Source of the DNA: a virus
Lineage: Duplodnaviria > Heunggongvirae > Uroviricota > Caudoviricetes
Strand: one strand, 5' to 3'
DNA: 42,580 nt
Virus record (IMG/VR): IMGVR_UViG_3300012344_000014
Location: 1 to 42,580 of that record
The notes under the pieces were generated by a model, which worked only from the letters and a program-made list of their open reading frames with translations, made no database searches and was not told the DNA's origin. Shown in pieces: positions 7,140-39,091 of this stretch (position 1 is its first letter; each line of letters opens with the position of its first letter). The position numbers and the translations under genes were made by a program.

Positions 7140-7409
7140 TCAGCCGTACCTCTTGTTTCTGAAAGCTGTTTCTGCGAATAAGGCGCAGAGAACTTTTATG
7201 AATGTGTATACAATGGAGACGCATACGGCCACCGTTGTAATGAATCCAAAGAAGTTCAGGCCGAAGTCCTACACCGCTGCTATGCTGCCAACTCGAATCA
7301 TTTGTACGATCGAGAGGAGCAGGCTGATGTCATTCGCAGCTTTGTATTTCAGGAGCAAGACGTCGAACAGGGTGGACAGCTTTTCAGAGTGCAGGTTCTA
7401 CTTCTACAT
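7140..7409 (-). CDS. Hidden small membrane protein, family A copy 1 (89 aa; TAG at codons 2, 4, 47)
   Basis: GGAGG-9nt-ATG; open to TGA if TAG is sense; ungapped similarity to 8088-8357 (AANDI..SIVQM..LCALFA). Confidence 0.75.
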
Positions 7410-7640
7410 AGGCAAATACCTCCAAATTTATTTGCCAAGGTATGCTATGCGGGAGAGCCCGACAACACGTTTTCTTTATTCTGGATGGGATTGGGTGGGG
7501 GAAACCTTGAAAACTGAATAACAATTTGGTTGACACAAAGCAACACGCGACGCTGGATTGCGCCGTTCCCAGGAAACCGGCGGTTTATCCTCAGCAAAGC
7601 ATTACGATTTTACATTCCCAAAGTATGAGCAATATTTCGA

Positions 7641-7934
7641 TTACTCATGCCGCGGAAATTGGGCAGCTGATGCCGGTTCGTTGCCCGACATCGCAATTGC
7701 CCATTCCTAGAGCGTGAGCAATAAGCCTATTACTCCTACCGCGGGAATAATGCAACCGAAGAATGCCAGCAGAAAATCAACCACAGATATGTCTGTACAT
7801 TCCTTGAGCATAATAGCCAAGGCCAGAAGCGCTCCGACAATGGATATGGCGGAGACAAACAATCCGACGCATGACAGGACAAGGCAAATACAGGCAATGA
7901 TCTTTTCTTTTTGAAGATTCTACAGATACTACAT
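7641..7934 (-). CDS. Hidden small membrane protein, family A copy 2 (97 aa; TAG at codons 2, 5, 76)
   Basis: AGGAGG RBS, extended -10 TGATATAAT at 7996-8004, two long hydrophobic segments; DFLLAFFG aligns with DFGLNFFG of copy 1. Confidence 0.75.
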
Positions 7935-8087
7935 AGGCAACTACCTCCTGAGATATATTGCCGAGGTTTGCTATGAGGCGTGAACCTTCAAGTTCATTAT
8001 ATCATGCGTTCGTTGCTTTGCGTAGGGTTAGGGGCGGGTAACGTTGGAAACGGAAAGAGGCAACCTCCAGGAAGCTGCCTCTCTGGC

Positions 8088-8357
8088 TTATTGACTTTGC
8101 GGCGGTGCAAATAGAGCACAGAGCAGTTCTATTACAAGCAGCACCTATGCAGCGCAGTTTGCAATTTCCGTAGAGTACCCGGCGCAAGATAAGATAAACT
8201 CTATTGCGCCCAATACAGTTTCGGAGGCCACCATTTGCACGATGGACCAGAACAGCGCTATGTCGTTTGCCGCACCGTATTGTATTCCAATGCAAAACAA
8301 TGTGATGCCAAGGAATACGATCAATAAGTCTTTGTGCCAGGAATTCTACTTCTTCAT
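8088..8357 (-). CDS. Hidden small membrane protein, family A copy 3 (89 aa; TAG at codons 4, 71)
   Basis: GAGAGG RBS, extended -10 TGCTATAAT at 8422-8430; paralog of 7140-7409. Confidence 0.75.
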
Positions 8358-8573
8358 AGACAAAATACCTCTCTTTTCAAAGTATCGCTGAGGCATGCTA
8401 TGGGGCGAACCCGGCAAGTTCATTATAGCACATCTTTTCGTTTCCAACATCTCTTCTTTGCTGAGAAACCCTGTTATTATACGGGTTTCGAAAGATATGC
8501 CGACGAGGTGGTACAACCTATCTACCTCGCCGGTGGAACTCATTGAACATCATGAATTATTGGAGGAAAACAC

Positions 8574-8831
8574 ATGAAACAGGAACATTACACCAATCTC
8601 ACGGACGCGCACATTGCTTATGAATCTGCGAAGGCGCGGGGAAACGGTATCGCCGGCGCAAAGGAAACACTGAAGAACCTGCTGTTTAATTACGCGCAGG
8701 AAATCATTGACGATCTTGGCGGCCAGCAGGCGCTGCATGATAAGATCGCCGATCTGGAGGCTGAGGTGGAGGCGCTGAACGAGGCGCTGGACGAGGCTGA
8801 TAAGGAACTGGCTGGCAAGAAGAACAAGTAA
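8574..8831 (+). CDS. Coiled-coil hypothetical protein (85 aa)
   Basis: GGAGG RBS; heptad pattern LHDKIADLEAEVEALNEAL. Confidence 0.8.
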   Translation: MKQEHYTNLTDAHIAYESAKARGNGIAGAKETLKNLLFNYAQEIIDDLGGQQALHDKIADLEAEVEALNEALDEADKELAGKKNK

Positions 8832-8860
8832 ACGACAACAAACAGAGGAGGTATTCAAGG

Positions 8861-9937
8861 ATGAAAATGGTTGAAGATCGTGAACTGCGCGGGTTCTGGG
8901 AAAAGGCTGAGGGCAAGGTTGAGCAGATGCTTTCGCGCATCGAAACGCTCGAAAAGGTGAAGCACCTATTTACCATTCCCGGCACAGATTTTATGACCAC
9001 ACGGCAGGTGGCGGAATATTACGAGGTCGATATCGAAACTGTTCGCAAAGTATATCAGCGTCATAAAGCGGAAATTGATTCGGATGGCACTGCGGTGAAG
9101 AAGGCGGCGGATTTTTTAACTGAACCTGAGGTTCAGGTTAAAGATGCAGATAGGCCAACTGGGCGGGAAGTCACGTTAGGGCGCGGCGATGGTAATGTTA
9201 GGGCTGGACAGCCTGTCCAGTCCAAAGGTTGTACGCGCGGGGTTACCTCTCTCGAATTCCGCAATGGTGTTGTGATTGAAATCAATAATGGCGGTACCCG
9301 CGTCTTTTCCCGCCGAGCTGTTCTTCGCATCGGTATGCTGATGCCGGGCTCGAGGGTTGCAACTGAGGTGCGCACGCAGTTGCTGAATGTGTTTGAGAAG
9401 GTGCCCGGCTTCGCTGCGGTTGAAGATCTTGATAAAGAGACGTTTTTGTATAAGCGTATTGGGGAAGCCTTTACGAATGGCAATGTGGTCGAGGCGTCGA
9501 GCTACATGACCCAGCTTACAGAGTATCTCAGCCGGAACAACAAAGCGCTCCGCGAGGCCAACAAAAATCTGGCAGACGACAATGAAAGGCTCGATGCTGA
9601 GAACAAGGTTTTGCTCAAAGAGGAGATGGAGTGGGACACCCGCAAACTCATCAACGCCGTTGTGCGCCGTGTTGCCGGCATTCGTTTCCCTGATGGCGGG
9701 GAATGGAAGTATGGCAAGATGTGGAATTACTGGAAGAGCCTGATGTATAACAAAGAGGGTATCAGCATTGGGCGGCGCCAGGTCGGTTGTAAAGGTTCTT
9801 ATCTGGACATGCTGCGCGATGACGAGTGGCCGGCGGCAATGAGCTGCACGCTGACGTTTGCGAAGCAATATGGAGTCGATATTGCCGACCTGTTGGCACA
9901 CGCGAAGGAGGGACTGCTCGATGAATGTAAATGCTGA
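8861..9937 (+). CDS. Antirepressor-like DNA-binding protein (ORF6N-like N-domain, coiled coil, C-terminal domain)
   Basis: MTTRQVAEYYEVDIETVRKVYQRH and FSRRAVLRIGMLM..SRVATEVR resemble phage ORF6N/antirepressor proteins. Confidence 0.65.
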   Translation: MKMVEDRELRGFWEKAEGKVEQMLSRIETLEKVKHLFTIPGTDFMTTRQVAEYYEVDIETVRKVYQRHKAEIDSDGTAVKKAADFLTEPEVQVKDADRPTGREVTLGRGDGNVRAGQPVQSKGCTRGVTSLEFRNGVVIEINNGGTRVFSRRAVLRIGMLMPGSRVATEVRTQLLNVFEKVPGFAAVEDLDKETFLYKRIGEAFTNGNVVEASSYMTQLTEYLSRNNKALREANKNLADDNERLDAENKVLLKEEMEWDTRKLINAVVRRVAGIRFPDGGEWKYGKMWNYWKSLMYNKEGISIGRRQVGCKGSYLDMLRDDEWPAAMSCTLTFAKQYGVDIADLLAHAKEGLLDECKC

Positions 9938-10307
9938 AGGGTATGTCAGCCTGAGTGAGCCGCGCGTGGTATCGCTTCTGATTTCGGGGAGAAGCAAGCT
10001 CGATCCATCTTTTTACCCTGAACTGGCGGCGGTGGGACCCACGGAGTCAACCGGGGTTCCCCGCTTCAACGACGCCGTAATCTGCACATATGCAGATCTC
10101 GACCGGCTGATTGGGGAATGCGGACTGTCGAAGGCGGAGCAATATACCGTGAACAAGCTGATGCGCGGCTATACGGTTATGGACATCGCTGAAATAAATA
10201 ACGTCAAGCACCCGACGGTGAGCGTCTGGTTTCGGCGGGCGGTGCAGAAAATTTGTAAATGTAACGAATCCCGGTGGGATGCTACTTATGTGTCTACGAA
10301 AAACTGA
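9921..10307 (+). CDS. Sigma-70 region-4-like HTH protein (128 aa)
   Basis: LSKAEQYTVNKLMRGYTVMDIAEINNVKHPTVSVWFRRAVQKI matches the region 4/LuxR HTH pattern; AAGGAGG RBS. Confidence 0.65.
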   Translation: MNVNAEGYVSLSEPRVVSLLISGRSKLDPSFYPELAAVGPTESTGVPRFNDAVICTYADLDRLIGECGLSKAEQYTVNKLMRGYTVMDIAEINNVKHPTVSVWFRRAVQKICKCNESRWDATYVSTKN

Positions 10308-10336
10308 ACTTGTTTGATATTAATATAAGGGAGGGA

Positions 10337-11056
10337 CTGATTATACTCGGTTACAATATTATTACCCCGAACGGGAAAGTAAAGAAGCTGCGCGTTGCAG
10401 ACAGCGAACAGAGATCTAAGGCAATAGCTGAATAGATCGAAGTTTGGAAGCAGTATTGCGAAAACAACTGGATCAGCACGCGGCACTATGATCAGCGGAC
10501 TCCGGAGGATAAGGTGAAGACCTTCCTCGACGGACTTGCATATTTTCTGATGCGTTCCGACACAGAAGGTATCGTGACTGATTACAAGGATATTCTGAAT
10601 GGTAAGAGGGAAGTCCCGGTATCTTCCTGCCCCCGCAGCGTGGAATATACTCTTTACGGCAATGGCGCTCCGCCCGAAGACGAAGACGAGAGCGGGTTTG
10701 GGATTCTGCTTGAGAATCTTGACCGCAAGGCTGAGCGCATGGAGCGGCGCAGAGCTGCGCAGAAAAAGAAGCCGAAACGAGTATCACGCATTGCCCGTTC
10801 TGAGCAGATTCGAAATGAGCTCGGAGCGTGTGAATTCTTTTTCCCGGTTGTCGACACAGATAATGAGTTTGAGCTGTTCGGCAACCGATACCATATTTCT
10901 TTGCAGGCAGAGCAGTATGGCGTGAAGCAGACCCGTGAGGGCGAGCTTTACGATATGGATCACATTGCGTGCGCTGTAAAGGGCGGAAACGTGGTTGCGT
11001 TTTTTGATGCGGACTTGAACCGGATATCGGACGAACTAATCGAGAGGGTGAGCTGA
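10337..11056 (+). CDS. Hypothetical protein extended through an in-frame TAG at 10433-10435; non-ATG start (CTG/ATT/ATA at 10337-10343)
   Basis: Strong AAGGGAGG RBS at 10327-10334; frame open except for one TAG in context KAIAE*IEVWKQY; continues into ORF 10514-11056. Confidence 0.6.
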
Positions 11057-11057
11057 G

Positions 11058-11834
11058 ATGGCAGCGAAGACTGCGGCTGGACTGGTTGCGTTTGTGAAAG
11101 AATGGGTTGGGCAGCCTTATTGGTATGGCACGCACTGTCACGATTGCACGACCTCTCTGTTAAAGCGTAAAGCTGCTCAGTACCCGGCTCATTACACGGC
11201 AGCGAGGATGCCGCGCTATCGTGCTGATATTGAAGCCGGTAAAAAATGCGCGGACTGTATTGGGCTTATTAAGGGGTATATGTGGATGGACGAAGAAACC
11301 GGCAAAGTCCGATATGGGTCGAACGGTTGCCCCGATAAGGGCGCGAACGGGATGTTCTCCTACGCAAAACAGCGCAAGCTGAAATGGGGAACAATCAACA
11401 CGTTGCCTGAACGGCCTGGTTTGGTGTTGTGGCGCAGCGGACATGTTGGCGTTTATATCGGTGGGGGAAAGTTGGTTGAGGCGCGCGGGTTTGCTACGGG
11501 TATTGTTGAGGCAAATGTTGCGGATCGAAACTTCACACACTGGTTTGAGATGCCGGCGCTCGCATATACAGAGCATGATGAACCTGTGAGCAAACCTGTT
11601 GCCGTAACAAGGATTACGTTGAAGCGTGGTATGAGCGGCAATGAGGTTCGCATGCTTCAGAACCGGCTGAATGAGATTGGCTATTCCTGCGGGGCGGCAG
11701 ATGGTAAATTTGGTGCGCTTACGCAGCGGGCGGTGAAAAGATTTCAGCGGGACAACGCGTTGCCGGTGAACGGAATCGCAGATGAAAAAACTTTGGAAAA
11801 AATTGAAAAAGTTTTTGCAAAACTGAAAAAATGA
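11058..11834 (+). CDS. Endolysin / cell-wall hydrolase: NlpC/P60 domain plus C-terminal peptidoglycan-binding domain
   Basis: ADCIGLI (catalytic Cys), GHVGVYIG (His); LKRGMSGNEVRMLQNRL..DGKFGALTQRAVKRFQ (PG_binding_1). Confidence 0.9.
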   Translation: MAAKTAAGLVAFVKEWVGQPYWYGTHCHDCTTSLLKRKAAQYPAHYTAARMPRYRADIEAGKKCADCIGLIKGYMWMDEETGKVRYGSNGCPDKGANGMFSYAKQRKLKWGTINTLPERPGLVLWRSGHVGVYIGGGKLVEARGFATGIVEANVADRNFTHWFEMPALAYTEHDEPVSKPVAVTRITLKRGMSGNEVRMLQNRLNEIGYSCGAADGKFGALTQRAVKRFQRDNALPVNGIADEKTLEKIEKVFAKLKK

Positions 11835-11860
11835 CCCTCAAAATGTTCCCTTTAATAGTG
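11818..11860 (+). promoter_or_regulatory. Phage-specific bipartite motif, copy 2, upstream of the tRNA cluster
   Basis: Repeat of 5354-5396. Confidence 0.55.
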
Positions 11861-11878
11861 AACGCAAAAGTTCACGGC

Positions 11879-11897
11879 GAACATTGACAACTGAATA
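11879..11897 (+). promoter_or_regulatory. boxA-like antitermination motif (GAACATTGACAACTGAATA) at the start of the tRNA operon
   Basis: Resembles Bacillota rrn boxA; position at the head of a stable-RNA cluster. Confidence 0.5.
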
Positions 11898-11899
11898 TT

Positions 11900-11989
11900 G
11901 GGCGCTGACAGCAAACACAAGTGATATAAGTTCTGAAAACTTTCAAGTCACTGGTTCCCACCAGTGATTCATCAAAAACATGCGCCCAG
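11900..11989 (+). ncRNA. GCGCT-ACAGCAA module copy 1, enclosing a degenerate anticodon-arm/T-arm-like fragment
   Basis: GGGCGC/GCGCCC closing stem, TGACAGCAA motif, internal CTGAAAA and ACTGG-TTCCCA-CCAGT hairpin. Confidence 0.55.
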
Positions 11990-12003
11990 TCTTATTACGT
12001 TAT

Positions 12004-12126
12004 CCGCATGTAGCTCAGAAAGGTAGAGCAACAGACAAAAAGAAAATGCGCGCAGTTAAAGGTGCGCTGACAGCAAAAGTTATTGGTTCAATCTGTGTGT
12101 CCCCGGTTCGAATCCGGGCGTGCGGA
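12004..12126 (+). tRNA. tRNA with a ~49-nt insertion in the anticodon loop; identity undetermined (possibly TTC)
   Basis: Canonical acceptor (CCGCATG/CGTGCGG), D arm, anticodon stem ACAGA/TCTGT and T arm GTTCGAATC; loop is 56 nt instead of 7. Confidence 0.7.
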
Positions 12127-12129
12127 AGC

Positions 12130-12189
12130 GGGCGCTAACAGCAATCTATTTGGAGAAGATTCGTAATCTTTATTTCATAACGCGCCCAG
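12130..12189 (+). ncRNA. GCGCT-ACAGCAA module copy, enclosing anticodon-like hairpin AAGA-TTCGTAA-TCTT
   Basis: GGGCGC-TAACAGCAA...AACGCGCCCAG. Confidence 0.55.
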
Positions 12190-12215
12190 TATTATTCAAG
12201 AAACAAGAGTCGCCC

Positions 12216-12470
12216 TTACCGGGCAGCCCCTGTTTGTTTGCGCCGTTTGGACCTTCTTATCAGGCGAGTTTTCCAGCGCTTCCGCCCAAGTGGTCGTTCC
12301 AGCTACGTGGCATATGTCGCAGGAAAGAGCAGCGCCAAGAATTCCCTGGCGGCGCAAACACCTTTTGCTATACTGACAATCGCACGAGGTAACGGAATAT
12401 AATCCGCCAGGAACGATACGGCGAACGCCGCACACAAAAGGACGACGAGTAGGATTCTCTATGTTTTCAT
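12216..12470 (-). CDS. Hidden small membrane protein, family B copy 1 (84 aa; TAG at codons 4, 56), basic C-terminus
   Basis: GGAGG RBS, TGCTATACT -10 at 12558-12566; aligns with 12681-12935 without gaps through WKTRL. Confidence 0.8.
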
Positions 12471-12572
12471 TGGTTTACCTCCATGTAATGTTTTCTCGCC
12501 TAATAAAACACACATGCGGCGACCGCGGAAAGCCAGAGCGTTCCAACCCGTACGAACAGTATAGCATATTAT

Positions 12573-12659
12573 GGAGAGATACTCAAGCGGTTTAAGAGGT
12601 CGGTTTGCTAAACCGATAGGCCGTAAGGCGCGCCTGTTCGAATCAGGCTCTCTCCGCCA
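12573..12659 (+). tRNA. tRNA-Ser(GCT)
   Basis: Class II cloverleaf with long variable arm, anticodon GCT, G discriminator, CCA. Confidence 0.92.
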
Positions 12660-12680
12660 GTAAATAGCAAAAGCCGCTCC

Positions 12681-12935
12681 TTAACGGAAACGGCTTCCGG
12701 TGTTATGTCGTCGTTTTCGCCTTTTCAGGCGGGTCTTCCACTGTTTCTGCGGATTTGTCCATTCAACAAACTTAGTGTACTGAGTCGGAATGACCAACGA
12801 AAGAATTTCGTGAACGACGCACAGCGCACCTGCTATGGCTGCCCACCATGACGGCAAGGAGAGAAACTCTCCAAGGAATGGAGTCATGATGGCAAGGCAC
12901 AGCAGCTATACAAACAGTTTCTTCTAAGTATTCAT
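12681..12935 (-). CDS. Hidden small membrane protein, family B copy 2 (84 aa; TAG at codons 4, 10)
   Basis: AAGGAGG RBS, TGATATAAT at 13024-13032; MNT*KKLFV*LLCLAIM; paralog of 12216-12470. Confidence 0.8.
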
Positions 12936-13037
12936 GAGAAAACCTCCTTGAATTATTTCGCCGCCCTGACAAAATAACCAAGGCTGTTCTTCACAAAACC
13001 TCGAAGTATACTGCTGTGCCGTAATTATATCACACAT

Positions 13038-13108
13038 CGCGCGGTAGTGCAAAGGCAGCACGCGGGATTCATATTCCTGCGATCCGGGTTCGAGTCCCGG
13101 CTGCGCAA
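13038..13108 (+). tRNA. tRNA-Met(CAT), initiator-like (C1:A72 mismatch)
   Basis: Cloverleaf, loop TTCATAT, GTTCGAGTC T arm; no encoded CCA. Confidence 0.8.
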
Positions 13109-13224
13109 TGGCACCTGTGTTCAGAGCCAAATCTATTCTTCTTAAGGCGGCGAGAAGTAAAGCAAGCCACCCCAATTCGAGGTTGGGATAATGCGTTATA
13201 CGCAAAAGAGCCAAACCTCACCCC

Positions 13225-13295
13225 GTGCGATTAATGTAACGGTAACATAACGCCCTTCCAAGGCGTTGTAGCGGGTTCAAATCCCGTATCGCACT
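13225..13295 (+). tRNA. tRNA-Gly(TCC)
   Basis: Cloverleaf, loop CTTCCAA, U discriminator. Confidence 0.9.
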
Positions 13296-13297
13296 TT

Positions 13298-13373
13298 GCC
13301 GTCTTAGCTCATTTGGCAGAGCAGCGCTCTTGTAAAGCGCAGGCGCTCGGTTCGAGTCCGAGAGACGGCTCCA
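13298..13373 (+). tRNA. tRNA-Thr(TGT)
   Basis: Cloverleaf, loop CTTGTAA, CCA end. Confidence 0.92.
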
Positions 13374-13456
13374 GCATCGTGTCGGCGGAGAGTTGCTGCC
13401 TCGAGGCCGGCTTTTCATTGAATACCTCCTTTCTGGGCGCCGGGAAACCGGCGTTT

Positions 13457-13529
13457 GGGGCCGTGACGCAATTGGCAGCGTACTCGCCTTGCACGCGAGA
13501 GGTTAGGGGTTCAAATCCCCTCGGCTCCA
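13457..13529 (+). tRNA. tRNA-Ala(TGC)
   Basis: Cloverleaf, loop CTTGCAC, G3:U70 identity pair. Confidence 0.92.
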
Positions 13530-13532
13530 TTT

Positions 13533-13593
13533 GGACGCTTACAGCAAATATTCTAGAGCAAATTTGTAACTTGCATTTTAGAAACGCGTCCAG
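13533..13593 (+). ncRNA. GCGCT-ACAGCAA module copy, enclosing anticodon-like hairpin GCAAA-TTTGTAA-CTTGC
   Basis: GGACGC-TTACAGCAA...AACGCGTCCAG; compensatory change in the closing stem relative to the other copies. Confidence 0.55.
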
Positions 13594-13606
13594 GATATCT
13601 TGACTT

Positions 13607-13683
13607 GGGCGGTTGGTGCAATTGGCAGACACAGCGACTTCTAATCTCGCGAGTTGAGGATTCGAATTCCTCACCGCTCACCA
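13607..13683 (+). tRNA. Amber suppressor tRNA (anticodon CTA), Leu-like body
   Basis: Acceptor GGGCGGT/ACCGCTC; D arm GTG-CAATTGGCAGA-CAC as in tRNA-Leu; loop TTCTAAT with CTA at 13641-13643; A73; CCA; short variable loop; C:C mismatch at 31:39. Confidence 0.88.
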
Positions 13684-13832
13684 ACGCCAATGGCCAGAGG
13701 CAACAAGCAGAGGGCGCGCAGATGCGTCCTGCTTCGGGAAGCGCTCCCGAGCGAAGCCTTCCGGAGGGTCGTCTGCCGGTTAACCGCGTCGAACCGAAAC
13801 CGCTGACGCGGATTCCATACAAACATGGCGTT
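13684..13832 (+). ncRNA. Unidentified multi-hairpin structured RNA directly 3' of the suppressor tRNA
   Basis: Ends pair (ACGCCA/TGGCGT); at least four internal hairpins; no credible ORF. Confidence 0.4.
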
Positions 13833-13889
13833 CAGCTTCCTGACGAAAAAGGAAAGCACAGGGGTCGAGTTACGTACAAGACCCCGCAT

Positions 13890-13967
13890 CGCACGAAACG
13901 CGAAACGGTATTTTCGCTCCGAGCTTATACCTCGGCTTAGTCAGTTCGACTCTGAATCGTGCGACCA
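13890..13967 (+). tRNA. Non-canonical tRNA-Ile(TAT)
   Basis: Acceptor CGCACGA/TCGTGCG, anticodon arm CCGAG-CTTATAC-CTCGG, T loop TTCGACT, ACCA end; atypical D arm. Confidence 0.65.
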
Positions 13968-14068
13968 CGCTCGTATAACGGGCTATGGCGGGCGGCTTGC
14001 TTCAGGTGGGGCCGGGAAGCCGGAATCCCATCAAGGCTTAGCCTCTATCGCATAACAGCTTGGGGCTG

Positions 14069-14176
14069 TTACTTCAAGCGACCTTCAAGATACCGTTCGA
14101 TAAGAATACCGACAAGTATCCAGAAAATCTCTTTGGCAATATTGAGCTATGTAGCCAAGATTGAAATCAAGATCAT
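14069..14176 (-). CDS. Hidden 35-aa hydrophobic peptide (MILISILAT*LNIAKEIFWILVGILIERYLEGRLK), type I toxin-like; TAG at codon 10
   Basis: GAAAGGA RBS; hydrophobic helix with charged tail; complementary flanks at 13987-13995 and 14240-14248. Confidence 0.6.
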
Positions 14177-14281
14177 ACTGTTTGTTCCTTTCCAGGATTG
14201 AGATTTATTTCATCTCTGGTCGCTGACAATTCTTCCCTTCCGCCCGCCCCAACATTTTAACACAAAACGGAGGAACTTTTA

Positions 14282-14776
14282 ATGCTGAAACCTGTTATTT
14301 CTATGAATAAGATGTCTATGAACGAATCGATCGCGACCACGTGCTGCTATGTCTGGAACGGCAACAGCCTGCTTGGCGCGGCGACGCTTCCTCACGGCGG
14401 CAAGCTTGTAGCGGACGCGAAGACCGATTCTTTTGTCCAGATCGAGAATACTCGCTACCCGCTGAATAGCACATGGTGGGATTATACGGACGGCCATGCT
14501 GCAAGCGGCGTGGCTGCACGAAGCGTTGTGACAAAGACCACGGATGGCAAGTGGGGCTATCATGATTATGCTAACCCCGGTGCGTTTACCCTGATGGAGA
14601 ATGGCCAGGTGACGAAGGAATTCTGCGACCACAAGAATCCGGAGATTTGTCCGTATTTCAAGGTTACAGAATATCTCGGCACGTTCACACACGTCGGCGC
14701 TACTTCCGCTCATTATAATCTGACCAGCGGCAACGAATGGCTGGCAGATCATCCGGCGCAGCAGTACATGTCCTGA
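14282..14776 (+). CDS. Hypothetical protein (164 aa)
   Basis: GGAGG RBS; followed by a terminator. Confidence 0.8.
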   Translation: MLKPVISMNKMSMNESIATTCCYVWNGNSLLGAATLPHGGKLVADAKTDSFVQIENTRYPLNSTWWDYTDGHAASGVAARSVVTKTTDGKWGYHDYANPGAFTLMENGQVTKEFCDHKNPEICPYFKVTEYLGTFTHVGATSAHYNLTSGNEWLADHPAQQYMS

Positions 14777-14793
14777 CGAATCGATGTTTCACT

Positions 14794-14825
14794 GGGCGGC
14801 ACAACTTCTCTGCCGCCCTCTTTTT
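14794..14825 (+). terminator. Intrinsic terminator
   Basis: GGGCGGCA/TGCCGCCC stem plus T run. Confidence 0.7.
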
Positions 14826-14857
14826 GTAACGGTGTTTCATGGATAAAGGAGCAGACA

Positions 14858-16042: not shown

Positions 16043-16046
16043 GTTC

Positions 16047-16078
16047 TACCCCTGCCGTAAGGCCGGGGTATTTTTATT
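16047..16078 (+). terminator. Intrinsic terminator
   Basis: TACCCC/GGGGTA stem plus T run. Confidence 0.6.
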
Positions 16079-16090
16079 GGAGGAATTATT

Positions 16091-18654: not shown

Positions 18655-18668
18655 GGAGGCGACAGGCG

Positions 18669-23984: not shown

Positions 23985-24257
23985 ATGAAGGTTAAGGTTA
24001 CATATTATAACGAAAAGCTGGAACCGCTGTATGAGAAGAGCTACCGGCTGGATGAGTACACCGGCATGTTGCGAATGGATTAGCTGCGGCTGATTACAGA
24101 CGTTGAGGATATGGCTTATCTGCTGAATGATAATAAGCCGAAGAGTGAATGGTCAAACGAATCATGGGCGGCGTTTTGCAAGATCAAACACAAGCTGCTG
24201 GACAAGGCCGGTGAAATTGAGCGCCTGCCGCAGAATATTGTGGAGGGCGGTGAGTAA
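23985..24257 (+). CDS. Hypothetical neck-region protein (90 aa) with in-frame TAG at codon 33 (24081-24083)
   Basis: GAGGTG RBS; with readthrough it fills the gap exactly and its TAA abuts the next ATG. Confidence 0.8.
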
Positions 24258-27618: not shown

Positions 27619-27625
27619 AATTTTT

Positions 27626-27662: not shown

Positions 27663-27682
27663 GGATAAAGGAGTAAAGGAAT

Positions 27683-29045: not shown

Positions 29046-29066
29046 AACCGGAAGATCCGGTTTTAT
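29042..29066. terminator. Bidirectional terminator between convergent genes
   Basis: ATAAAACCGGA-AGA-TCCGGTTTTAT. Confidence 0.65.
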
Positions 29067-29755: not shown

Positions 29756-29776
29756 ATCAATACCCCCTTTATTGAT

Positions 29777-29805
29777 AATATAGCAAGTTCGTTTGCTTTT
29801 GTCAA
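29777..29805 (-). promoter_or_regulatory. sigmaA promoter TTGACA-17-TATATT (extended TG) for the moron
   Basis: Near-consensus hexamers with 17-nt spacing. Confidence 0.75.
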
Positions 29806-29839
29806 ACGAATCCCAATAAGACAAAGGAAGTGAAGGAAT

Positions 29840-32800
29840 TTGGCGGATGAAAAATATATTGCCTCGTTGCGGCTGGATCTGAGCAAGCTCAATAAGGACA
29901 TCGAGGGAGTCAATAAGCTTCTGAAGTCTATTGGCGCCGGCGTAAACCTGAATATGAGCGACGTGGTGGAGAAGCAGATTAAGGCGATGCTGACACGGCT
30001 CAAGAACGAGGTTCAAAGCGCGGCTAAAACGGGCGGGCAAGCCGGGAAGGAAATGGCTTCCGGATTCGCCGGGGCGACAACCGAAATCGAGCGGGTGATG
30101 AGCGTCACCTCCAAGCTGGCAAAAGACGGCAGCGTGACGCAGACCACAAGGGGTTACAAAGATCTTGGAACCGCGATAACAGAGGTTCGGAAGCAGGGAG
30201 AATAGCTGAGCCGGACGACCACATCCAAGGGCGACCTTGCAAAAGAAATCGACAAAGCGAATGCGCTCTACAAAGAGCAGATCGGTTATCTAAAAGAAAT
30301 GTACTCCCTGCGGACGCAGCGACTTTCCGCTACGGATGGCAGTGACCAGGCGAAGCGCTTGGACGCGGAAATTCAAAAATACGGCGAGCTGATTGCGAAA
30401 AGCAGAGAACAGTCCTCAGCGTTGAGTGATGAGGCGAAACAGCTTTCGAACTTGAATAAGCTGAGCGAAGAGCGAGCGAAAATTATCAAACAGTATCAGA
30501 GCGCGCTGAAGGAAAGCGGCAGCGGAGAAACCGGACTCAAGCAGATGACGGAGGAATATAAGCGGCTGTCTGAATATGTCCGCAACTATAACAGCGCGCA
30601 GAAGAGCGGGCAGGATACGTCCTACTGGCAGGAGCGGATTGAGGCATCTAAAAAACTGCTGACACAGCAGAGCGAGGAAATCCAGAAGCTTGACTTGACA
30701 ACCGAACGGAAGCAGCAGCTGCTTACGCTGGAGCAGAAAATTTCCGACGTGCTGGCAAAGCAGAATACGAACACTGGAAACGCCGGGGCGGAGCAGCTGG
30801 CAAAGGCACAGAAGGCGTTGGCGCAGATGCAGACCGCGCTGAGCGGTATCGGCAGGTCGTATGCGAATAAAGATATGGACGGCATGAAGGCGTGGGCGAA
30901 AGTCGGGGATGAGGCGAAGAAAACCACTGATGAAGTAGCTGAACAATTGAAAAAACTCCAGCTCTCAGAAGAAGAACTTGCCGCAATTGAAAACGCGCTG
31001 CATCAGGTCAACGACCTGTATTCCAAGCAGGGCGAGATGCTGGATATTAACGGGCAGTTCCTTGATAAAATTGGGACGAAGCTCGCGGAGCAGGCGGTCA
31101 CCTGGACGACCAATACGCTTAAGAATATGTTCCAGGATGCGATCTCTTACGCATCGGAATACTACGATCTGATGAACGAGATCCGGATTGTTTCGGGATA
31201 CAGCGAGGAACAGGCGGCCAAGCTGGGCGCGGAATACCGCACGCTGGCGAAAGAGATGAGCGTATCTTCTACCGACATTGCGAAGGCGGCCGTGGAATTT
31301 TGGCGGCAGGGTCTGGATGAAGACGAAACAAACCGGCGTATCAAAGCGGCGACGCAATACGCGAAGATCAGTTCGCTGGAATTTACAGAGGCGGCTGAAT
31401 TGATTACGGCGGCCACTAACACAATGGATATATCTGCGCAGAAAGTCGCGGATGTGTTTGCGTACTTGGGAGATGAATCGGCATCGGGTTAACGACAAAC
31501 AGCCCGTATACACAGTAATGTGTTATAAAAGAATCCACTTGTTCGGGGAAAGCCCTGAGGAGGGTAACTCCGATGCGCGTTAAGCGCGGTAACGACTGAA
31601 TGTTGTATTAGTAATGATGCAGCTACGGTGGACTCCCTATTCGGGATGAAGATACAGTCTGTTCTGCAACGTACCTTATTGAAGTTGCAGAGGTAGGATG
31701 AAAATCCTATCCGCCTACAAAATATTTGTAGGTCATAAAAGTAACAGAAAGGCCGATGAAATTGGTGTGGCGATGCAGAAAGCATCTGCGTCCGCCGAAG
31801 AATTTGGCGTGAGTTTTGAATGGCTTGGCGCGTATATTGCGACCGTCAGCGAAAAAACGCGGCAGGCACCTGAAGTAATTGGTACGGCGTTCAACTCTCT
31901 GATGGCGCGCATGCACTCCATAAAGCAGAAGGGTTTCAACGAAGAAGACGCCACCCAGATCAACGACGTGGCGAAAGCATTAGGCACACTTGGTATCGAA
32001 CTGCTGGACGAAGAGAACAACTGGCGCAGCATGTCCGACATTATGACGGAAATCGCTGGGCAGTGGGACACACTGGATGCAAAACAGAAGGCGTATATTT
32101 CGACCACTATCGCCGGTGCAAGACAGCAGAACACTTTCCTTGCGCTGATGAGCGATATGGCTAAGGGCGTGGAGGGCGGCAGCCGTGCGTTTGAGCTTTA
32201 TGAGGGCGCGCTGAACGCGGCCGGCACAGCGACGCAGAAATACAGCGTGTATATGGAATCGGTTGAGGCGGCACAGGGACGGCTGAAGTCGTCGTTGGAA
32301 AGCCTTTATGGACTGCTGAGCGCGGACTGGATGAAAGGCGCTTATGACGGACTGGCCGGATTTGTTGACCTGATCGCGAGCGGTACGGAATCCCTGAAGG
32401 GGCTTAACGTTACGATCCCTGTGGTGGCAGCCGGGCTTGGAGCGGTTGTGGTGGTAATTACCAAGATCGTTTCGCTGATTAAAACAATCAAAACTATGGG
32501 GCTTGTTGCTGGCATTGCGTCGGCATCGAACCCGATCGGGCTGATCGTCACCGCGCTGGCGGGGCTCGTTACGGTTATCACGGCCGTTACCGGTGCGATC
32601 AAAAAAGCGTCTACGGTAAAACTGCCGGATTACAGCGAACAGCTGAGCACGCTGAAGGATTATACGGGGACGATCTCCCCGCTGATCGACGAATACACGA
32701 AACTCGCCGGAAAGCAAAACAAGACGACGAGCGACACGGAGCGGATGGACGCGATATTCGCGCAGTTGTCCGGAACCTCTTATACTCTGCAGACAAAACT

Positions 32801-35800
32801 GGAAGGGCTGGAAGGCCAGTACAACAGCGGCAGCGAAGCCATACGGGCGATGAATAAAGAACTGCGGGAACAGGTAGACCTGCAGAATTCGATCTCACAG
32901 CTGGACGCGTTCAGCAAATTTGCGGAGCAAGTTCAGACGGTTAAGGACGCGTACTCGGAGATGGATAAGGTCGATCTCCAGAAGAATGCGCTGAAGTATT
33001 GGAGCGAATATACGCAGGGACTGGAGAACCCGTTGGATGCGACGAAGGGCGGGTTTGAAGATTACCTGCAGAGCAAGTATGTGGAATACAGCTCCAAGGG
33101 AATTGACCGGGAAGCGAACGGCATGAAGGACTGGGCTGGGCAGCTGTACGCCCTTGCAGATGAATATAATGATGCGTTTGCGTATGTGGACAAGTTGGGC
33201 GACGACATCAATACAGAGATGATGAACCTCAACACGTTAGTTGGGGCGAGCGCGGAGAAGGCAGCGGCTGGCATCTCTGACGCATGGGATGGCATTGAAC
33301 AGAGTCTGAACGCGTTCGGGCAGGACGGCAGCTTTATGGACGTGCCGGCGGAAATTACGAAGAATATCGATTCGTTCATAGGCACGATCGTGGATTCGAT
33401 GCGGAACTCGGTTGGTGGAGACGTGGACGCGTTGACGGAAGAAATGCTGAATAAGGCCGCCTCCTTGATCAAGAGTTATGTGGGCGCGGTTAAACAGAAT
33501 CTTGAAGGGGCCGATATGGCTGACGTGCTCCCGGACAACTTCAAGAGCGCGCTAAGCGAATACAGCGACGAGCTGTTTACATTCCTGCAGAAACTGTACG
33601 AACAGAACCCGGCGGCGGTCACAGAGGAACTGCTCGGCTCGGTCACGGAAATGTTCACGGTATGCAGAGATACGCTGGCCAAGCTCGCCTCCTCGCCGGA
33701 ATTTACCAAGCTGATGGACGAATATAACGAGATGCTGAAAGCGCCGGAAGCTGTGGATTATGACGGCTACAAGAAAATTGTTGACGGCATTAACGGATAC
33801 ATTGCCGAATACAACGCGCAAGTTGAAAACGGCGAAATTGAAGGCGCGAAGATCGACTTGCTCCCCGACTATAATGAAGAGGAATTCGTCAAGTGGAAAG
33901 AAACGGCAGTAGCTTCTGTTACAGCTGTGGGTGAAGCGGCAGATGCGGCGGCCGAAAAGATGGGGAGTTTTGGCAAATACTACGCGGAATGGCTGGAGAA
34001 ACAGAAGGCGGCTGATGCGGCGAAGAACAATTACCGGGACGCAACGAGTGATATCTTGAATAGGTCGATAAACGCGGACACGAAGAAATTTGACGTGAGC
34101 CTTTTCAAAGCTGCAATGGATGAAGCGCACGCGGCGAACGCAGACCTGGTGGAAGAGATGACGAAAGCCTATCCGATGCTGGGCGATATTTACGCCGGGC
34201 TGATGAAGGAAGGCGACGCGTACAGCTATCTCAAGAGCATTATCAACGGAACCACGGTGGCGTACGCTGAAGAACGTTCGGAGATGGCGGAGAACCTGAA
34301 AGCGCAGGAAGCGCTGGCGAAAGCGAAAGAGGCCGGGTTTGCCGACCAGGTGGGCGCGCTGGACAAGGCGTTCACGGAAGGTCAGGTACCGACGTTCGCC
34401 AATGGCGTGATGGGACTTTCGGGCGGACTGGAAAACGCGCGGAAGGAATTTAACACATGGTCTTCTGACATGCAGGAGAGCTTCGCGCAGACCTATCCTG
34501 AACTTTACAATATCCTCGCCGGGACGGTAGAAGTGACCGACGAAACGGGTGCATGGGCAGAGGCGCTCGCAAGAGTTTATGAAATGCTCGCAAACATCTC
34601 TTCAGCGTCGAAAGAAGATTTCTTCGCGGAGCAGACCGAATATGCGAAAAACGAAAAGCTGAACGCGGAAGCGCAGACCGCGGCGGATAACAGTTACTCT
34701 GGGCAGATCAACGACCTGGCGGGCGTATTCATGGATTCGGCGAATATGGAAGATAAAGCCGAGGCCATTGAGATGTTGCGGGAAAAGATCTACGAGATGT
34801 ACACGGAAAACGCCACGCTGGCAGAAGGCTTCCGCGAGGACTACGGCAGCTTCTGGAACGTACTTTTTGACCCGGACAGTGATTGGGAAGACGTTGTATC
34901 GGCTTATGTGGAAATGCTTGAACAATGCCGCGGGAGTTTGCAGGAAACAGCAGACGCGCTTTATGAAGCGCAGAATGGTACGGCGGAATACAATGCGGCC
35001 TTGGCGAACATTCAGGAGGCGTTGGACACCGGCTCGGAGGAGGCGTTTATCGCCGTATGGAACAGCCTCGGTAAGACGATGCAGAAGGCGCTGCTGGAAG
35101 GCTCGGATGCGGTTAAGGATTATGTGACCAGCCTGAGCGATATGTCGGATGCACACGAAGATGCGCTGGACGCGGCGAAGAAGCTGACGCGCGAAGGGCT
35201 GACAAAAGAAGGCACACAGCTTGCCAAGCAGAATAAAATCTGGGAGGAAGCCGTCGATGTAATCAGCGACAGCGGCAAATCACAGGCGGAGTACCTGAAA
35301 TCTATCGCTGGTATTGGAACAAGGCTGAACGACCTAGCGCTGGCACAGGCAGATCTTGCGACCGTGATGGATACAACCCAAGCCGGCACTGACGCATACA
35401 CTACAGCGCTGGCGAATCTGGCGGACTATTGCGGATTCGCGATCAACTCTGAATATGATTTGGCTATGGCGGCGGCATTGCTGGCAGGCGACACAGACAT
35501 GGCAACCAGCAGCGTGGAGTGGTTGATTAATTCAATGCTGACGTTAACCGGCATTGACTTGAATCCTAGCACATGGATCGCACAACTACAAGCGCTGGCG
35601 GCTCAAAACGACGTGACAGCAGACGCTGTTTTGAACTTGATTGAATACCTCGCAAGCGTAAACGGCGCGACTGTGAGCCTTGACAAGAACGGCAGGGTAA
35701 ACGTCACCGGGCTTGGCTCGAAGAGCAACGGGCGAAGAAGCAGCTCCAGCAGCCGACGCAGTGGTGGTGGCGGAGGCGGAAGCAGCCGGAGAAGCAGCAC

Positions 35801-37865
35801 CCCCAGCAGCTCTTATGGAGGAAGCGGGAGCGGTGGCAACAGTGGCCCCTCTGAAATTGAACGCTTCCTGGACGTGCTCGACCAAATCCAGACGATTCAG
35901 AACCACAAGAAAGCAATTATTGAACTGGAGAAGGCATACTTTGAAAGCCGCGGCGAAATTCAGGGCGTGCTGAAATGTATCGAATATGAAAAGCAGGCGA
36001 TACAGGCTAATACGGATACCATACAGGCGAACCTTTCCAAAGTTGAAGCCCTGATGGAAGCCAAGCGGGCAGAAGTTAATATGATGGACACCTCCGCGGA
36101 AGGGTATTCTGAGGCGGCGGACGATCTGAAGAGCTTGCAGCAACAGCACATGGAATACAGCAAGCAGCTGAAGCAGAACCGGAACGACATCGAAGCGCTG
36201 AACAAGGAAATTAAGGAATGGAAGAACAAGATCCGGCAGATGGAAATTGATCTGCGGAACACCATTCTGGCGGCGATTGAGGATCGGGAAGAATTGAAGG
36301 AGCGCATGCTGCAGGGCACGATCGAAACAGAGGAAGCGATACTCGATATCATCAAGGCGCGATACGAGAAAGAACGCGACGAGATTCTTGAGACGGCGGA
36401 CGCAAAAAGAGACGCACTAGAAGAGGAAAAGAAGGCACTGCAGGAGCAGCTGAACGCGCGCAAGGAAGCACAGCAGGAAGAGGAAAAACTGATTGAGCTG
36501 AAAAAACTTGAAGCGAAACTGGCTCGTATTTCGGCTGACTCGACGCGGCGCAAGGAAGCGCTGGAGCTGCAGGAGCAGATTAAAGACCTGCGCGACGAAA
36601 TCGCATGGGATACGGCAGAAAAGGAAGTTGAGGCGCAGCAGGAAGCGATTGACCAGCAGATTACGAGTACGGAAGAATACGCAGACTATATCGAAAAATA
36701 CTACGAAGACCTGCTGGAAAACCCGCGCAACTTCATCGAAGAAGTGCAGAAGATCATGGCGCAGTCCGATGAGGAAATCCTGCAGTGGCTGAAGGAAAAC
36801 AGCGAGGAATATAAAAACTCCACAGACGCCACGCGCACGGATATCACAAACGGCTGGCAGGATATGCTCAACGACATGCGCGGCGCGATCGTCACATATT
36901 GGGATGAAATCGAAGAAATCATTTCGAAGGGCGACGATGCGATTATCCAGTTCCTGATGGACAACAGTGCGGACTATAAGGCGGCGGGCAAGCTGCAGGC
37001 GGAGGCGTATGTCGATGCGTGGAAAGAGCAGCTAGAGAACCTGAAGAACGCCTACAAAGATGTTGCGGTAGATATCAGCAGCTATGACTACCAGCCGGTA
37101 ATGCCGGCGTCTGGAAGCCCTGGTGGCGGTTATGACGGAGGGTATGACTATAGTCCGAGTCCCGGCCCCAGTTCCCCAGGTGGGGGGTCGAAGCCTAAGA
37201 CACTTTGGTCTTTTACGTTTGATGGGCAGGTATATAGTGGTTATTCTTCCAGATCGGCTGCGAACAGCGCGGCTAAGAAGGCCGCTCAAAGCTGGCTGAA
37301 CAGACATATGGCAGCGGCAGGAGGTGCGGCTGGGCAAGCGCAGGTACGCGCCCAGTACAACACAATGCTCAACAGCGCGATTCTTTCCATCCGGAGCTAT
37401 AGCAGCGGAAACGCAAGCAGTAGGGCTACGAGTTCTGCGACGGACATTTTGAACAGATTGAAGTCGGGGTCTTCAAGCGGTGGAAATTCTACGGCTGGTA
37501 CGCGTAATACCACTGTGTCGAAATATGCTACGGGTGGCCTGAGTACCGAAACCGGACTTGCATGGCTGGACGGCACGCCGAGCAAACCGGAGCGCGTCCT
37601 TTCTCCTTACCAGACCGAATTGTTTGAAGACATGATCGACACGCTGCACGCAATCAAGACAATCAACGTACCGACAATGCCGGCGTTTGGCGCGGAGACG
37701 AATTCCCGCTCTCAGCCGACGCTGACATTTGGGGACGTTGTGATCCAGGTGGATAAGCTTGATAACGACACGGACTATGATGAGCTGGCTGAAAAATTCT
37801 TCGATCATGTTTTGGAGAAATCCGGGCGGGTTCAGTCTGTAGGCGGCATAAGGTTATCCAAATGA
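29840..37865 (+). CDS. Tape measure protein (~2587 aa): exons 29840-31489 and 31752-37865; in-frame TAG at codon 122 (30203-30205)
   Basis: ORFs 29840-30205 and 30299-31492 share a frame separated only by TAG; spliced junction LGDESASG|ADEIGVAMQK lies in a TP901-type TMP core; TM segment; YATGG..AWLDG..PERVL C-terminal motif. Confidence 0.88.
31490..31751 (+). ncRNA. Group I intron 3 in the tape measure gene (262 nt, no ORF)
   Basis: P1 CGGGU/GCCCG with U:G; P7 AACGACTG / GATACAGTC; terminal G; removal restores the frame. Confidence 0.88.
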
Positions 37866-37870
37866 ATAAT

Positions 37871-37893
37871 GGGGGAGGGGAATTCCCTCCCTC
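37871..37893 (+). terminator. Hairpin after the tape measure gene (possible terminator)
   Basis: GGGAGGG/CCCTCCC stem; weak U-tract. Confidence 0.4.
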
Positions 37894-38011
37894 CTCTCCG
37901 CTGTAAAAGGAATGAAGTTATAGAACCGGCCGAGCTGTTCGAGCGGCTTTGCCTCCGGGAATAAGAATGGCTGAACACCGTATTTATAAAGGATAAAGGA
38001 GTGAACACCGT

Positions 38012-39091
38012 ATGGATGGATTTTCCTACAATGGGATTCACAGTGACGCGATGGGAGTTGGATTCGCTCCGGCAGCCGACTCCAGACAGCGGAAATAGGC
38101 GGCATATGAAGTCGCCAGCGATGAAATTACCGGCCGTGACGGCGGGTATTTTTATTTTACCCGGCTGAAGACGCGCGAGTTCTCTTTGCCGTGCTGGTTT
38201 GAAGAGATCACAATCAAGCAATGGGAGAAGATTAAGCACTGGCTTGACCGGAAAACAGAGGGGCGGCTGATATTCGACGACGCGCCGTTTATGTATTATA
38301 ATGTGCGCCCAACAAAGGCGGTTACATACAAAATCTACCCGGCAGACAAGGGACGCATCAGCGGCACATTCACCGTGACGTTTACGGCCTACGACCCGTG
38401 CGGATATCTGCTTTATGACAGGTTGGATGTGGCAAATGACGACTGCCTGAAGGCGGCTGAATACTGCGATATGCTCACGCCCGCGTTGATGCCCGAAACG
38501 CCCAGCAAAAACACAAACGACTTTCTTCTATACAACTGTGGGACGGAGCCGTGCGACACGCGCATTTGTATTTCTGGCCTGATAAACGACAAGGTGCAGA
38601 TTCGCAACGCAGCGAACAACCAGGTCTGCACACTGGTGCCGCTGGAAGGCTATCAGCGGATGCCAGTGGACGATAATAATGCCGGGTCTTATCTGGAGAT
38701 TGACAGCCAGTATGGATCAGTGAAGCTGCTGGGGCTTGGTTCGCCGACGTTTGCGTTCGGCTACCATGACGACGGCTTCATTAAGCTGGAGCCTGCGAAC
38801 CTGGAGCGCGACGGTGTTACCGCAACCACCACGGAAGACAGCAACGTTGTGGCGGTGGCAGGAGTGACACTGGACGAGAGTTATGCCGGGCGGTATATTT
38901 GGGTTGAGAGCGCATGGCGAAAAATCCTCAACGTAAAGCTGGCAGACGGCGCGAATAGCGTTGTGATCGACACGAAGGCCGCGACCTCTTCCATGGCGGA
39001 GACAATGATCGCAACGCTGAACCGGATACAGATTACCGGATTCAGCAAAATGGAAAAACTTGAAGTTGAATACAAACCGAAAATTTTATAA
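38012..39091 (+). CDS. Distal tail (Dit-like) protein, 359 aa, with in-frame TAG at codon 29 (38096-38098)
   Basis: AAAGGAG RBS; MDGFSYNGIHS...ITGRDGGYF...REFSL is a Dit-type N-terminus, in frame with ORF 38186-39091. Confidence 0.85.

Follow-up and report, generated by a model that had tools for sequence, protein, structure and literature searches.

Evidence for TAG Read as Leucine in a Family of Gut Phages of Clostridia

Which amino acid is inserted at TAG codons that lie inside otherwise intact phage genes, and what decodes them? The question is raised by IMG/VR record IMGVR_UViG_3300012344_000014, a phage record of 112,324 bases with overlapping ends and an estimated completeness of 98%. 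The window, meaning the whole stretch of 42,580 nucleotides analyzed here, comprises bases 1 to 42,580 of that record and encodes terminase, portal, capsid, tail, tape measure, and distal tail (Dit) proteins together with a tRNA cluster. The initial annotation of this window had counted 18 in-frame TAGs in 11 genes and proposed that they are read as leucine by a tRNA at position 13607. All 18 TAGs are indeed there, and the leucine reading is supported by the alignment columns of the phage family, by this genome's own sites, and by the leucine-type body of the tRNA. We conclude that TAG very probably means Leu in this genome, and we consider it likely that this meaning arises through the phage CUA tRNA and the leucyl-tRNA synthetase (LeuRS) of the host. 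Comparison of related sequences gives good support to the view that the stop-to-leucine code is real and extends across this family of Clostridia gut phages.

Five of the in-frame TAGs lie on the plus strand (10433, 24081, 26265, 30203, and 38096). In the whole genome, 41 TAGs fall within 143 read-through gene calls; 36 were kept as sense codons, while the other 5, in four genes, were excluded because each probably is a stop or follows a probable stop. A Shine-Dalgarno-like motif is present in the 20 nucleotides before the start used in 10 of the 11 genes, which largely bears out the ribosome binding sites described earlier, although the start of the gene at 10310 is uncertain. All 35 genes called from 5.4 kb on end in TAA (21 genes) or TGA (14 genes), again as described, a result that holds partly by construction because the genes were called with TAG read through.

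TAG columns in the phage family

Relatives were located with a terminase alignment (11 were found in the genome collection); a scan with the capsid alignment found none, and the diversity of the major-tail alignment (A3) precluded its use for scanning loci. Alignments were built for 23 core families, drawing on this genome plus 109 loci or records of relatives (110 sequences). They exclude 14 duplicate loci, a false family that stems from an intron, and whatever part of the tape measure extends past 500 residues of its second exon. To score a codon, we compared it with a profile made from sequences sharing less than 80% identity with the sequence that carries it. In-frame TAG occurs in 79 of the 110 sampled sequences of this phage family, which is widely distributed in gut collections from animals and humans.

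Over 253 distinct TAG columns, Leu is ahead of Met by 350 natural-log units (nats), of Ile by 399, of Val by 485, and of Gln by 749. The majority residue is Leu in 129 of these columns and Gln in 6, and the scoring method recovered 61 of 61 sense codons as a control. The TAG columns are not fully independent of each other, but the margin of Leu is still far beyond the calibration error. Every one of the 50 sequences with at least 5 TAGs scores as Leu. When the relatives are grouped at 85% identity, 30 of the resulting 40 clusters have TAG, and Leu is found in 26 of the 30 and in all 15 that have at least 5 TAG columns.

This genome nests among lineages that are each strongly Leu (FastTree support, 0.985), and the relatives that flank it on both sides in trees give Leu by 12 to 65 nats; in a larger FastTree tree, its immediate neighbors are weakly supported (0.34 to 0.65). 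Some TAG-free lineages (L008, L024, L066, L076, and L123) nest among TAG users, and one lineage (L013, L094 to L096, and L131) has a CUA tRNA yet no more than a single in-frame TAG among the ~4,300 codons of core genes that were aligned.

TAG sites of this genome

Combined, 12 sites of this genome place Leu first, with Val 5.0, Ile 8.8, Met 8.8, and Gln 15.1 nats behind. Pfam scores summed over five genes are 224.7 bits with Leu at TAG, 222.3 with Met, 221.6 with Val, 221.5 with Ile, and 214.3 with Gln. Position 26265 is codon 33 of the major tail protein gene (26169 to 27618, plus strand; PHROG 2729) and faces Leu in 6 of 6 full-length members of a 90% cluster, two other members of which end at this position. 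Such truncated members imply standard-code gene calling, so that the Leu at this site likely comes from an ordinary Leu codon. In distant homologs the same column holds Val (48), Leu (15), Ile (2), and Ala (1). At 24081, codon 33 of a small head/neck-region gene (23985 to 24257, plus strand), 42 sequences have Leu (30), Ile (9), Met (1), Val (1), and TAG (1). The column of 10433, in a conserved late-region gene of unknown function (10310 to 11056, plus strand), holds Leu (22), Ile (10), Val (7), Met (2), Tyr (1), and TAG (1), and the column adjacent to it is TAG in five other clusters. Outside the window, genome position 47197 faces Leu in 100 of 144 homologs and Gln in none, and position 45294 faces Leu in the sole homolog covering it.

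The initial annotation had also drawn the residue from paralogs inside the window. Their columns are as it reported (TAG/V/I, I/L/TAG, I/TAG/I, V/TAG, and TAG/F), and they do separate a hydrophobic residue from Gln, but they do not separate Leu from Ile or Val.

A CUA tRNA with a leucine-type body

A tRNA with anticodon CUA (CTA in DNA) was found by ARAGORN at 13607 to 13683 on the plus strand, where the initial annotation had placed it, and scores 42.2 bits with the Rfam tRNA model. It folds as a cloverleaf and, in the position numbering of our own parser, has A73, A14, A15:U48, unpaired 13-22, G1-C72, and an encoded CCA. The first three of these features are listed as Leu identity elements of Escherichia coli (PMC6614811). 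The set of A73, A14, A15:U48, and unpaired 13-22 occurs in 17 of 18 phage Leu tRNAs, in 20 of the 23 distinct CUA tRNAs of the phage family, and in only 3 of 154 others, none of which is a Gln, Ser, Tyr, or Trp tRNA. A leave-one-out isotype classifier, with an accuracy of 123/171 overall and 17/18 for Leu and with no false Leu, assigned the tRNA to Leu by 9.8 nats over Tyr, with Gln outside the top three. Its D arm is identical to that of the Leu(UAA) tRNA of L069 and its T arm to that of the Leu(CAA) tRNA of L068, while its acceptor stem is shared with the CUA tRNA of L098, the variable arm of which has 17 nucleotides. The best 4 BLAST matches among annotated phages are all tRNA-Leu (E value of 0.05). 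We infer that this tRNA decodes the in-frame TAGs.

Short variable arms are not confined to this tRNA. The arm has 6 nucleotides or fewer in 7 of 18 Leu-anticodon tRNAs of related phages, and long arms of 16 to 20 nucleotides are found in 7 of the 23 CUA tRNAs.

Points against the leucine reading

Several observations weigh against Leu as the residue, against its delivery by this tRNA, or against the translation of some of the genes concerned. Taken alone, the five plus-strand sites in the window favor Leu by just 0.9 nats against Val and 2.0 against Ile, and calibration with 3 sites identifies true Leu codons correctly only 48 to 71% of the time. Position 38096, codon 29 of the Dit gene (38012 to 39091, plus strand), lies in a polar column and faces Gln in the two closest full-length homologs (71% identity); the PHROG 33 match of this gene begins at residue 3, upstream of the TAG. 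Position 30203, the single TAG (codon 122) of the tape measure gene (29840 to 37865, plus strand; PHROG tape measure matches), lies in a poorly aligned polar stretch where a polar residue is preferred, and a glutaredoxin-like site and a PAPS-reductase site prefer polar residues as well. The homolog tally that the initial annotation proposed thus yields Leu at 24081 and, in near relatives, at 26265, but Gln at 38096 and a polar residue at 30203, and the two peptides that it put forward for mass spectrometry at the latter positions fall on exactly these unfavorable sites. In the wider family, 4 of the 30 TAG-bearing clusters, with 1 to 4 columns each, score best as Ile, Tyr, Pro, or Cys.

The tRNA itself has a 5-nucleotide variable loop and a C31-C39 mismatch, and only 14 of the 23 CUA tRNAs are called Leu by the classifier (5 are called Tyr). 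The Leu tRNAs of candidate host genomes are long-armed in 7 of 7 cases, and one search pattern found no short-armed tRNA-Leu in five candidate hosts. LeuRS of E. coli charges only long-armed tRNA-Leu, whereas that of Streptomyces charges both long- and short-armed forms (PMC6614811). The short-variable-arm (type I) tRNA-Leu of Streptomyces coelicolor is a precedent for a bacterial LeuRS accepting such an arm (PMC6614811), but it is a sense tRNA (CAA) in an actinomycete, and the phage tRNA would have to be charged by the LeuRS of a clostridial host, which may behave differently. Finally, the six small minus-strand genes that carry the remaining TAGs of the window have no homolog in the 109 related sequences, and they show atypical codon use and indels in close strains.

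Isoleucine, valine, or methionine

The alternative that survives best is that TAG is read here as Ile, Val, or Met, or as a mixture of these with Leu, and we regard it as improbable. It can draw on the residues in the paralog columns (V, I, I, L, I, I, V, and F), on the predominance of Val at the 26265 column in distant homologs, on Leu margins of 5 to 9 nats when this genome is taken alone, and on the Ile-isotype amber tRNAs predicted in other gut phages (PMC10879173). The tree neighbors on both sides nevertheless favor Leu by the 12 to 65 nats given above, near relatives carry Leu at 26265, and calibration draws of 114 columns mistook codons for Ile, Val, or Met as Leu in just 0 to 0.5% of cases. 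The charging enzymes also speak against it: IleRS, ValRS, and MetRS read the anticodon, which LeuRS largely does not.

Host and mechanism of decoding

The genome, which is 98% complete, yielded neither a release factor (RF-1) nor any domain of a class I synthetase, and three relatives likewise showed no release factor; with no phage synthetase or release factor found, the LeuRS of the host is the likely charger. The phage CUA tRNA, charged with leucine by this enzyme, would compete with host RF1 at TAG. During lytic growth, the codon would be translated as Leu, although the host normally uses it as a stop. The codon would then have a dual meaning, namely, stop while the tRNA is absent and Leu once it is made, and TAGs early in genes would make the middle and late proteins dependent on expression of the tRNA.

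Of the 11 terminase matches in the genome collection, 10 are in metagenome-assembled genomes (MAGs) of Clostridia, three of them titled Aristaeellaceae or "Ca. Faecivicinus"; the contigs concerned are mostly short, and they may represent fragments of phage that were binned with the MAGs. Among annotated phages, the terminase is closest to those of SPbeta-like and Clostridium phage c-st siphoviruses, which are very distant (28 to 31% identity), and no close cultured relative was found among the annotated collection compared. A large serine recombinase encoded outside the window suggests a temperate life.

A 300-kb contig of a Eubacteriales MAG (G004:C59) contains a related prophage at ~205 to 296 kb with in-frame TAGs, a long-armed CUA tRNA, and a terminal recombinase. 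The 8 TAGs scored in this prophage give Leu by 3.6 nats over Ile. In the first 190 kb of the contig, 18 of 95 coding-like open reading frames (ORFs) end in TAG, and the coding signal is lost after it, as after TAA or TGA. PolA and ABC permeases are complete at their TAG stop, and no Pfam domain crosses TAG in 20 ORFs, except in a separate gene beginning after the TAG. Unless this contig is chimeric, the family thus has at least one member whose code is not the one used by its host. The CUA tRNA of the prophage (G004:C59:291007-291092; L166) lies between DNA polymerase and remA-like genes of the replication block and not in a tRNA cluster.

It is quite improbable that TAG means Leu but is decoded by the host, through a recoded host code or a host suppressor tRNA, with the phage tRNA being incidental. 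The phage CUA tRNA has a weak anticodon stem, and several TAG-using relatives are without a CUA tRNA in the stretch examined, both of which would suit such a host. Against it stand the prophage in a contig whose bacterial genes end in TAG and the RF1-type PxT motifs in 2 of 5 candidate host genomes, in a motif test that left 3 of 9 matches unclassified, including the second one of G004. Furthermore, the phage tRNA is unmatched in the 5 candidate host genomes (all incomplete), and tRNAs with a CUA anticodon appear repeatedly among these phages, in some cases with no other tRNA in the stretch examined.

Glutamine and other known stop codon reassignments

Decoding of TAG as Gln (code 15), as in crAss-like and other recoded phages, is very improbable here. 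It is the sole experimentally validated phage amber code (PMC9523058), GlnRS is attracted by amber anticodons (PMC9976931), and Gln stands opposite the TAG at 38096 in the two 71%-identical homologs. However, a single transition separates TAG from CAG, and this accounts for Gln at a site that tolerates it. Gln falls 749 nats below Leu over the 253 columns and 15 below it at the 12 sites of this genome, and ~0.9% of all Gln codons lie at TAG columns, compared with 12 to 16% of Leu codons. Moreover, the tRNA has A73 and G1-C72, and A73 is found in 0 of 4 phage Gln tRNAs.

The preferred reading, TAG as Leu, otherwise places these phages close to recoded gut phages using code 15 (TAG as Gln) or code 4 (TGA as Trp). 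Both have in-frame stops in structural genes, a phage suppressor tRNA, no phage synthetase, prophage examples, and a proposed role in timing, and a standard-code host is indicated here for the related prophage in G004:C59. The difference is the residue, which is Gln or Trp there and Leu here; in addition, TAG is used sparsely here and with a bias to gene starts. The Borges preprint (10.1101/2021.08.26.457843) gives only TAG to Gln and TGA to Trp for phages whose code differs from that of the host, and Gln was validated by proteomics in Peters et al. (PMC9523058) and used by Cook et al. (PMC11210395), for phAss-1 (PMC10607447), in a jumbo-phage survey, and in an infant-gut preprint. In the portion of the theta-ribozyme paper that was available (PMC10879173), the amber tRNA isotypes predicted are Gln, Trp, Ile, and Tyr, not Leu. 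The huge phages of Al-Shayeb et al. (PMC7162821) are similar in their repurposed TAG, CUA tRNA, and table-16 label, but they have genomes of >200 kb and no Leu assignment; "code 16" is a proxy only, and the residue is stated to be unresolvable.

The initial annotation knew TAG as Leu from green-algal mitochondria. This holds for chlorophycean mitochondria (NCBI table 16), but the assignment is not limited to them, being reported also for phyllopharyngean ciliates with a tRNA-Leu(CUA) (PMC11687900) and for the rhizarian exLh nucleus (PMC5304391), both nuclear codes. The eukaryotic codes share with the phage code the meaning of the codon, the retention of TAA and TGA as stops, a Leu-type suppressor tRNA, and inference from homolog columns. 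They differ as whole-genome codes of a cell or organelle, whereas here the code belongs to a virus in a bacterium; unlike in the table 16 type, TAG probably still serves as a stop in the host, and also in a small number of phage genes. The annotation was also unaware of a phage case, and our literature search, which covered few subscription papers, found no phage or bacterial report of TAG as Leu.

Reading through TAG raises the coding density of this genome from 0.856 to 0.882, with ~36 sense TAGs in 143 genes. Recoding screens require a gain of 5 to 10% in coding density, according to PMC9523058, and a gain below this rule explains why such genomes are missed. If true, the Leu code would be the third resolved stop codon meaning for phages that differ from their hosts. 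It would undercut the view, inferred in the Borges preprint, that only GlnRS and TrpRS lend themselves to recoding, and a synthetase that largely ignores the anticodon would offer a simpler route to recoding. Public gene calls cut the proteins of this family short, and code-15 tools would write Gln for Leu. Natural short-armed Leu suppressors would also be candidates for amber-suppression tools in Bacillota.

TAG as a stop codon or an error

That the TAGs are true stops or errors, be they nonsense mutations in a decaying phage, sequencing artifacts, or codons upstream of the real starts, is extremely unlikely. The variability of the small genes among strains and the presence of a few TAGs that do resemble true stops would agree with it. 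In the essential virion genes, however, homology continues on both sides of the TAG, and the in-frame stops within alignments of 16 core proteins in relatives, taken from a plain tblastn control, are TAG in 572 of 572 cases and never TAA or TGA; 354 of the 572 face Leu in this genome. Truncation points are also identical on dozens of contigs and in 4 of 4 runs. The TAG at 26265 is kept in the contigs of all four runs (from four studies, one contig being identical and possibly the source), and no TAG-to-Leu polymorphism was directly caught at this site in the four runs. In public gene calls, a 32-amino-acid product ending at the 26265 codon is found on 24 contigs, and cut products of three middle genes occur on 26 to 90 contigs, with the stop codons themselves not displayed. 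Of the 15 tape measure cluster members listed, 11 have 121 amino acids, the same as the product of this genome cut at 30203. Assembly error, which the initial annotation had named as a possible flaw, can thus be set aside: the codon at 26265 persists in the contigs of all four runs, and the truncated products recur publicly. Only 40 of 697 differences were listed for strain contigs over 7000 to 14400, so that not every small-gene TAG is confirmed by them.

A few TAGs do appear to terminate translation. The one at 2273 to 2275, on the minus strand in an early gene, looks like a true stop, with a GGAGG-preceded ATG in the same frame 3 nucleotides later; suppression here would fuse two proteins. 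TAGs at genome positions 58502, 80987, and 108099 are probable true stops as well. Since TAG still appears to end several genes here, its meaning in this genome is likely dual, and a full reassignment is not supported.

Just as unlikely is that TAG encodes pyrrolysine. ARAGORN labels the tRNA at 13607 to 13683 as pyrrolysine, and some Clostridia use this amino acid. That label follows the anticodon only. The tRNA has A73, not the usual G73 of tRNA-Pyl (PMC9976931), and a normal D-loop GG and T-loop, no Pyl synthetase family was found in a Pfam scan of 126 proteins, and the TAG columns are Leu.

Placement of TAG codons and timing

When the small genes are left aside, the first 60 codons hold 12 of 14 sense TAGs, compared with 635 of 2,444 other Leu codons (P = 5e-6; within-gene permutation, P = 0.002), while TTA and CTA are unbiased. 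The corresponding counts in relatives are 134 of 293 for TAG versus 1,634 of 7,492, and 39 of 58 in sparse users of TAG. Because TAGs mostly come this early, the peptides set free when read-through fails would be short. The bias suggests that gene-start TAGs may serve as a translational gate; it would fit regulation and, just as well, selection that disfavors long truncated products when suppression is leaky. By phase, TAG makes up 0 of 458 Leu-type codons in early genes, 4 of 966 in middle genes, and 10 of 1,093 in late genes, phases being assigned by position only, and the difference between early genes and the rest (14 of 2,059) is not significant (P = 0.09).

Among the core families of relatives, TAG is most frequent in a sigma-factor-like gene, where it makes up 18 of 174 Leu-type codons and where two TAG columns are common to 6 and 7 clusters. 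In the window, this gene (9921 to 10307, plus strand; PHROG 3512, E value of 7e-7) adjoins the late-region gene with TAG 10433 and is itself without TAG. It is tempting to imagine a switch shared by a whole family of temperate phages, in which a Leu-type amber tRNA, charged by the host enzyme, unlocks middle and late genes that each bear an early TAG. The late sigma-factor-like gene would be the conserved gate in sparse users, and small counter-oriented membrane proteins with TAG at codons 2 to 5, produced only if such a tRNA is there, would sense or effect lytic entry or superinfection by a relative; we offer this as a tentative scheme that we ourselves find rather doubtful. Given the start bias and the prophage in a standard-code host, whether phage recoding acts as a timing switch could be addressed directly through one tRNA gene.

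Small minus-strand genes

The six small minus-strand genes look as though they are translated through their TAGs. Family A consists of small hydrophobic genes. The first, at 7140 to 7409, has TAGs at 7406, 7400, and 7271 (codons 2, 4, and 47), a GGAGG before its ATG, and indels among close strains. Its paralog at 8088 to 8357 (E value of 2e-15) has TAGs at 8348 and 8147 (codons 4 and 71) and is synonymous in 6 of 6 strain differences listed. A weak member at 7641 to 7934, which matches the first with an E value of 5e-4, has TAGs at 7931, 7922, and 7709 (codons 2, 5, and 76) and an AGGAGG before its ATG. In the family as a whole, 16 of 25 listed strain differences are synonymous. Family B, with a hydrophobic N terminus and a basic tail, comprises two paralogs (E value of 1e-14) at 12216 to 12470, with TAGs at 12461 and 12305 (codons 4 and 56), and at 12681 to 12935, with TAGs at 12926 and 12908 (codons 4 and 10). 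Their identity by codon position is 0.57/0.66/0.33, and 24 of 36 shared residues use different codons, in a protein-guided alignment that favors such a pattern. The least certain of the six is a 35-codon hydrophobic ORF at 14069 to 14176, with a TAG at 14149 (codon 10) and an AGGA before its ATG, for which no family match was found in PHROGs, Pfam, or NCBIfam. The small genes in general had no match in PHROGs (4 of 6 tested), Pfam, or NCBIfam.

TAG accounts for 22 of 147 Leu-type codons in 12 small genes and for 14 of 2,458 elsewhere; this high share was not counted as evidence because the set was chosen partly by its TAGs. Two of four runs lack 465 bases between the family B genes (12259 to 12725), joined at a short repeat, and one other run is without the entire family A genes. 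More small genes that face against their neighbors carry TAG in relatives (L036:5756-5998, L036:6128-6382, L036:9544-9699, L037:9625-9903, and L035:4387-4596). Such genes include one more pair of paralogs, the third, in which a TAG is matched by Leu, as well as a HicA-like gene that contains two TAGs.

Intron-like inserts and other RNA elements

The major tail gene is split by two group I intron-like inserts (26760 to 27071 and ~27175 to 27469), which score 32 and 44.9 bits against Rfam RF00028, below the gathering score of 50; a close homolog without inserts (P0214) reads straight through both sites. A TAG at 27445 was rejected as a sense codon, as it falls within the intron. The tape measure gene contains one probable intron, a third insert at ~31490 to 31751 with similar core motifs and no Rfam match. 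The ends of the first intron were fixed by script and those of the other two by eye.

A tRNA gene at 12004 to 12126 (48 bits) was missed by ARAGORN; a 55-nucleotide stretch replaces its anticodon loop and contains the ACAGCAA word of nearby hairpins. These hairpins (11899 to 11989, 12129 to 12189, and 13532 to 13593) have a GCGC-type stem and an ACAGCAA opening and enclose an anticodon-like stem-loop. They match no Rfam family, and similar elements are found in 19 other loci of the phage family. Directly behind the CUA tRNA lies a stretch predicted to fold strongly (13684 to 13880), and a degenerate tRNA-like cloverleaf with a UAU anticodon is present at ~13889 to 13967.

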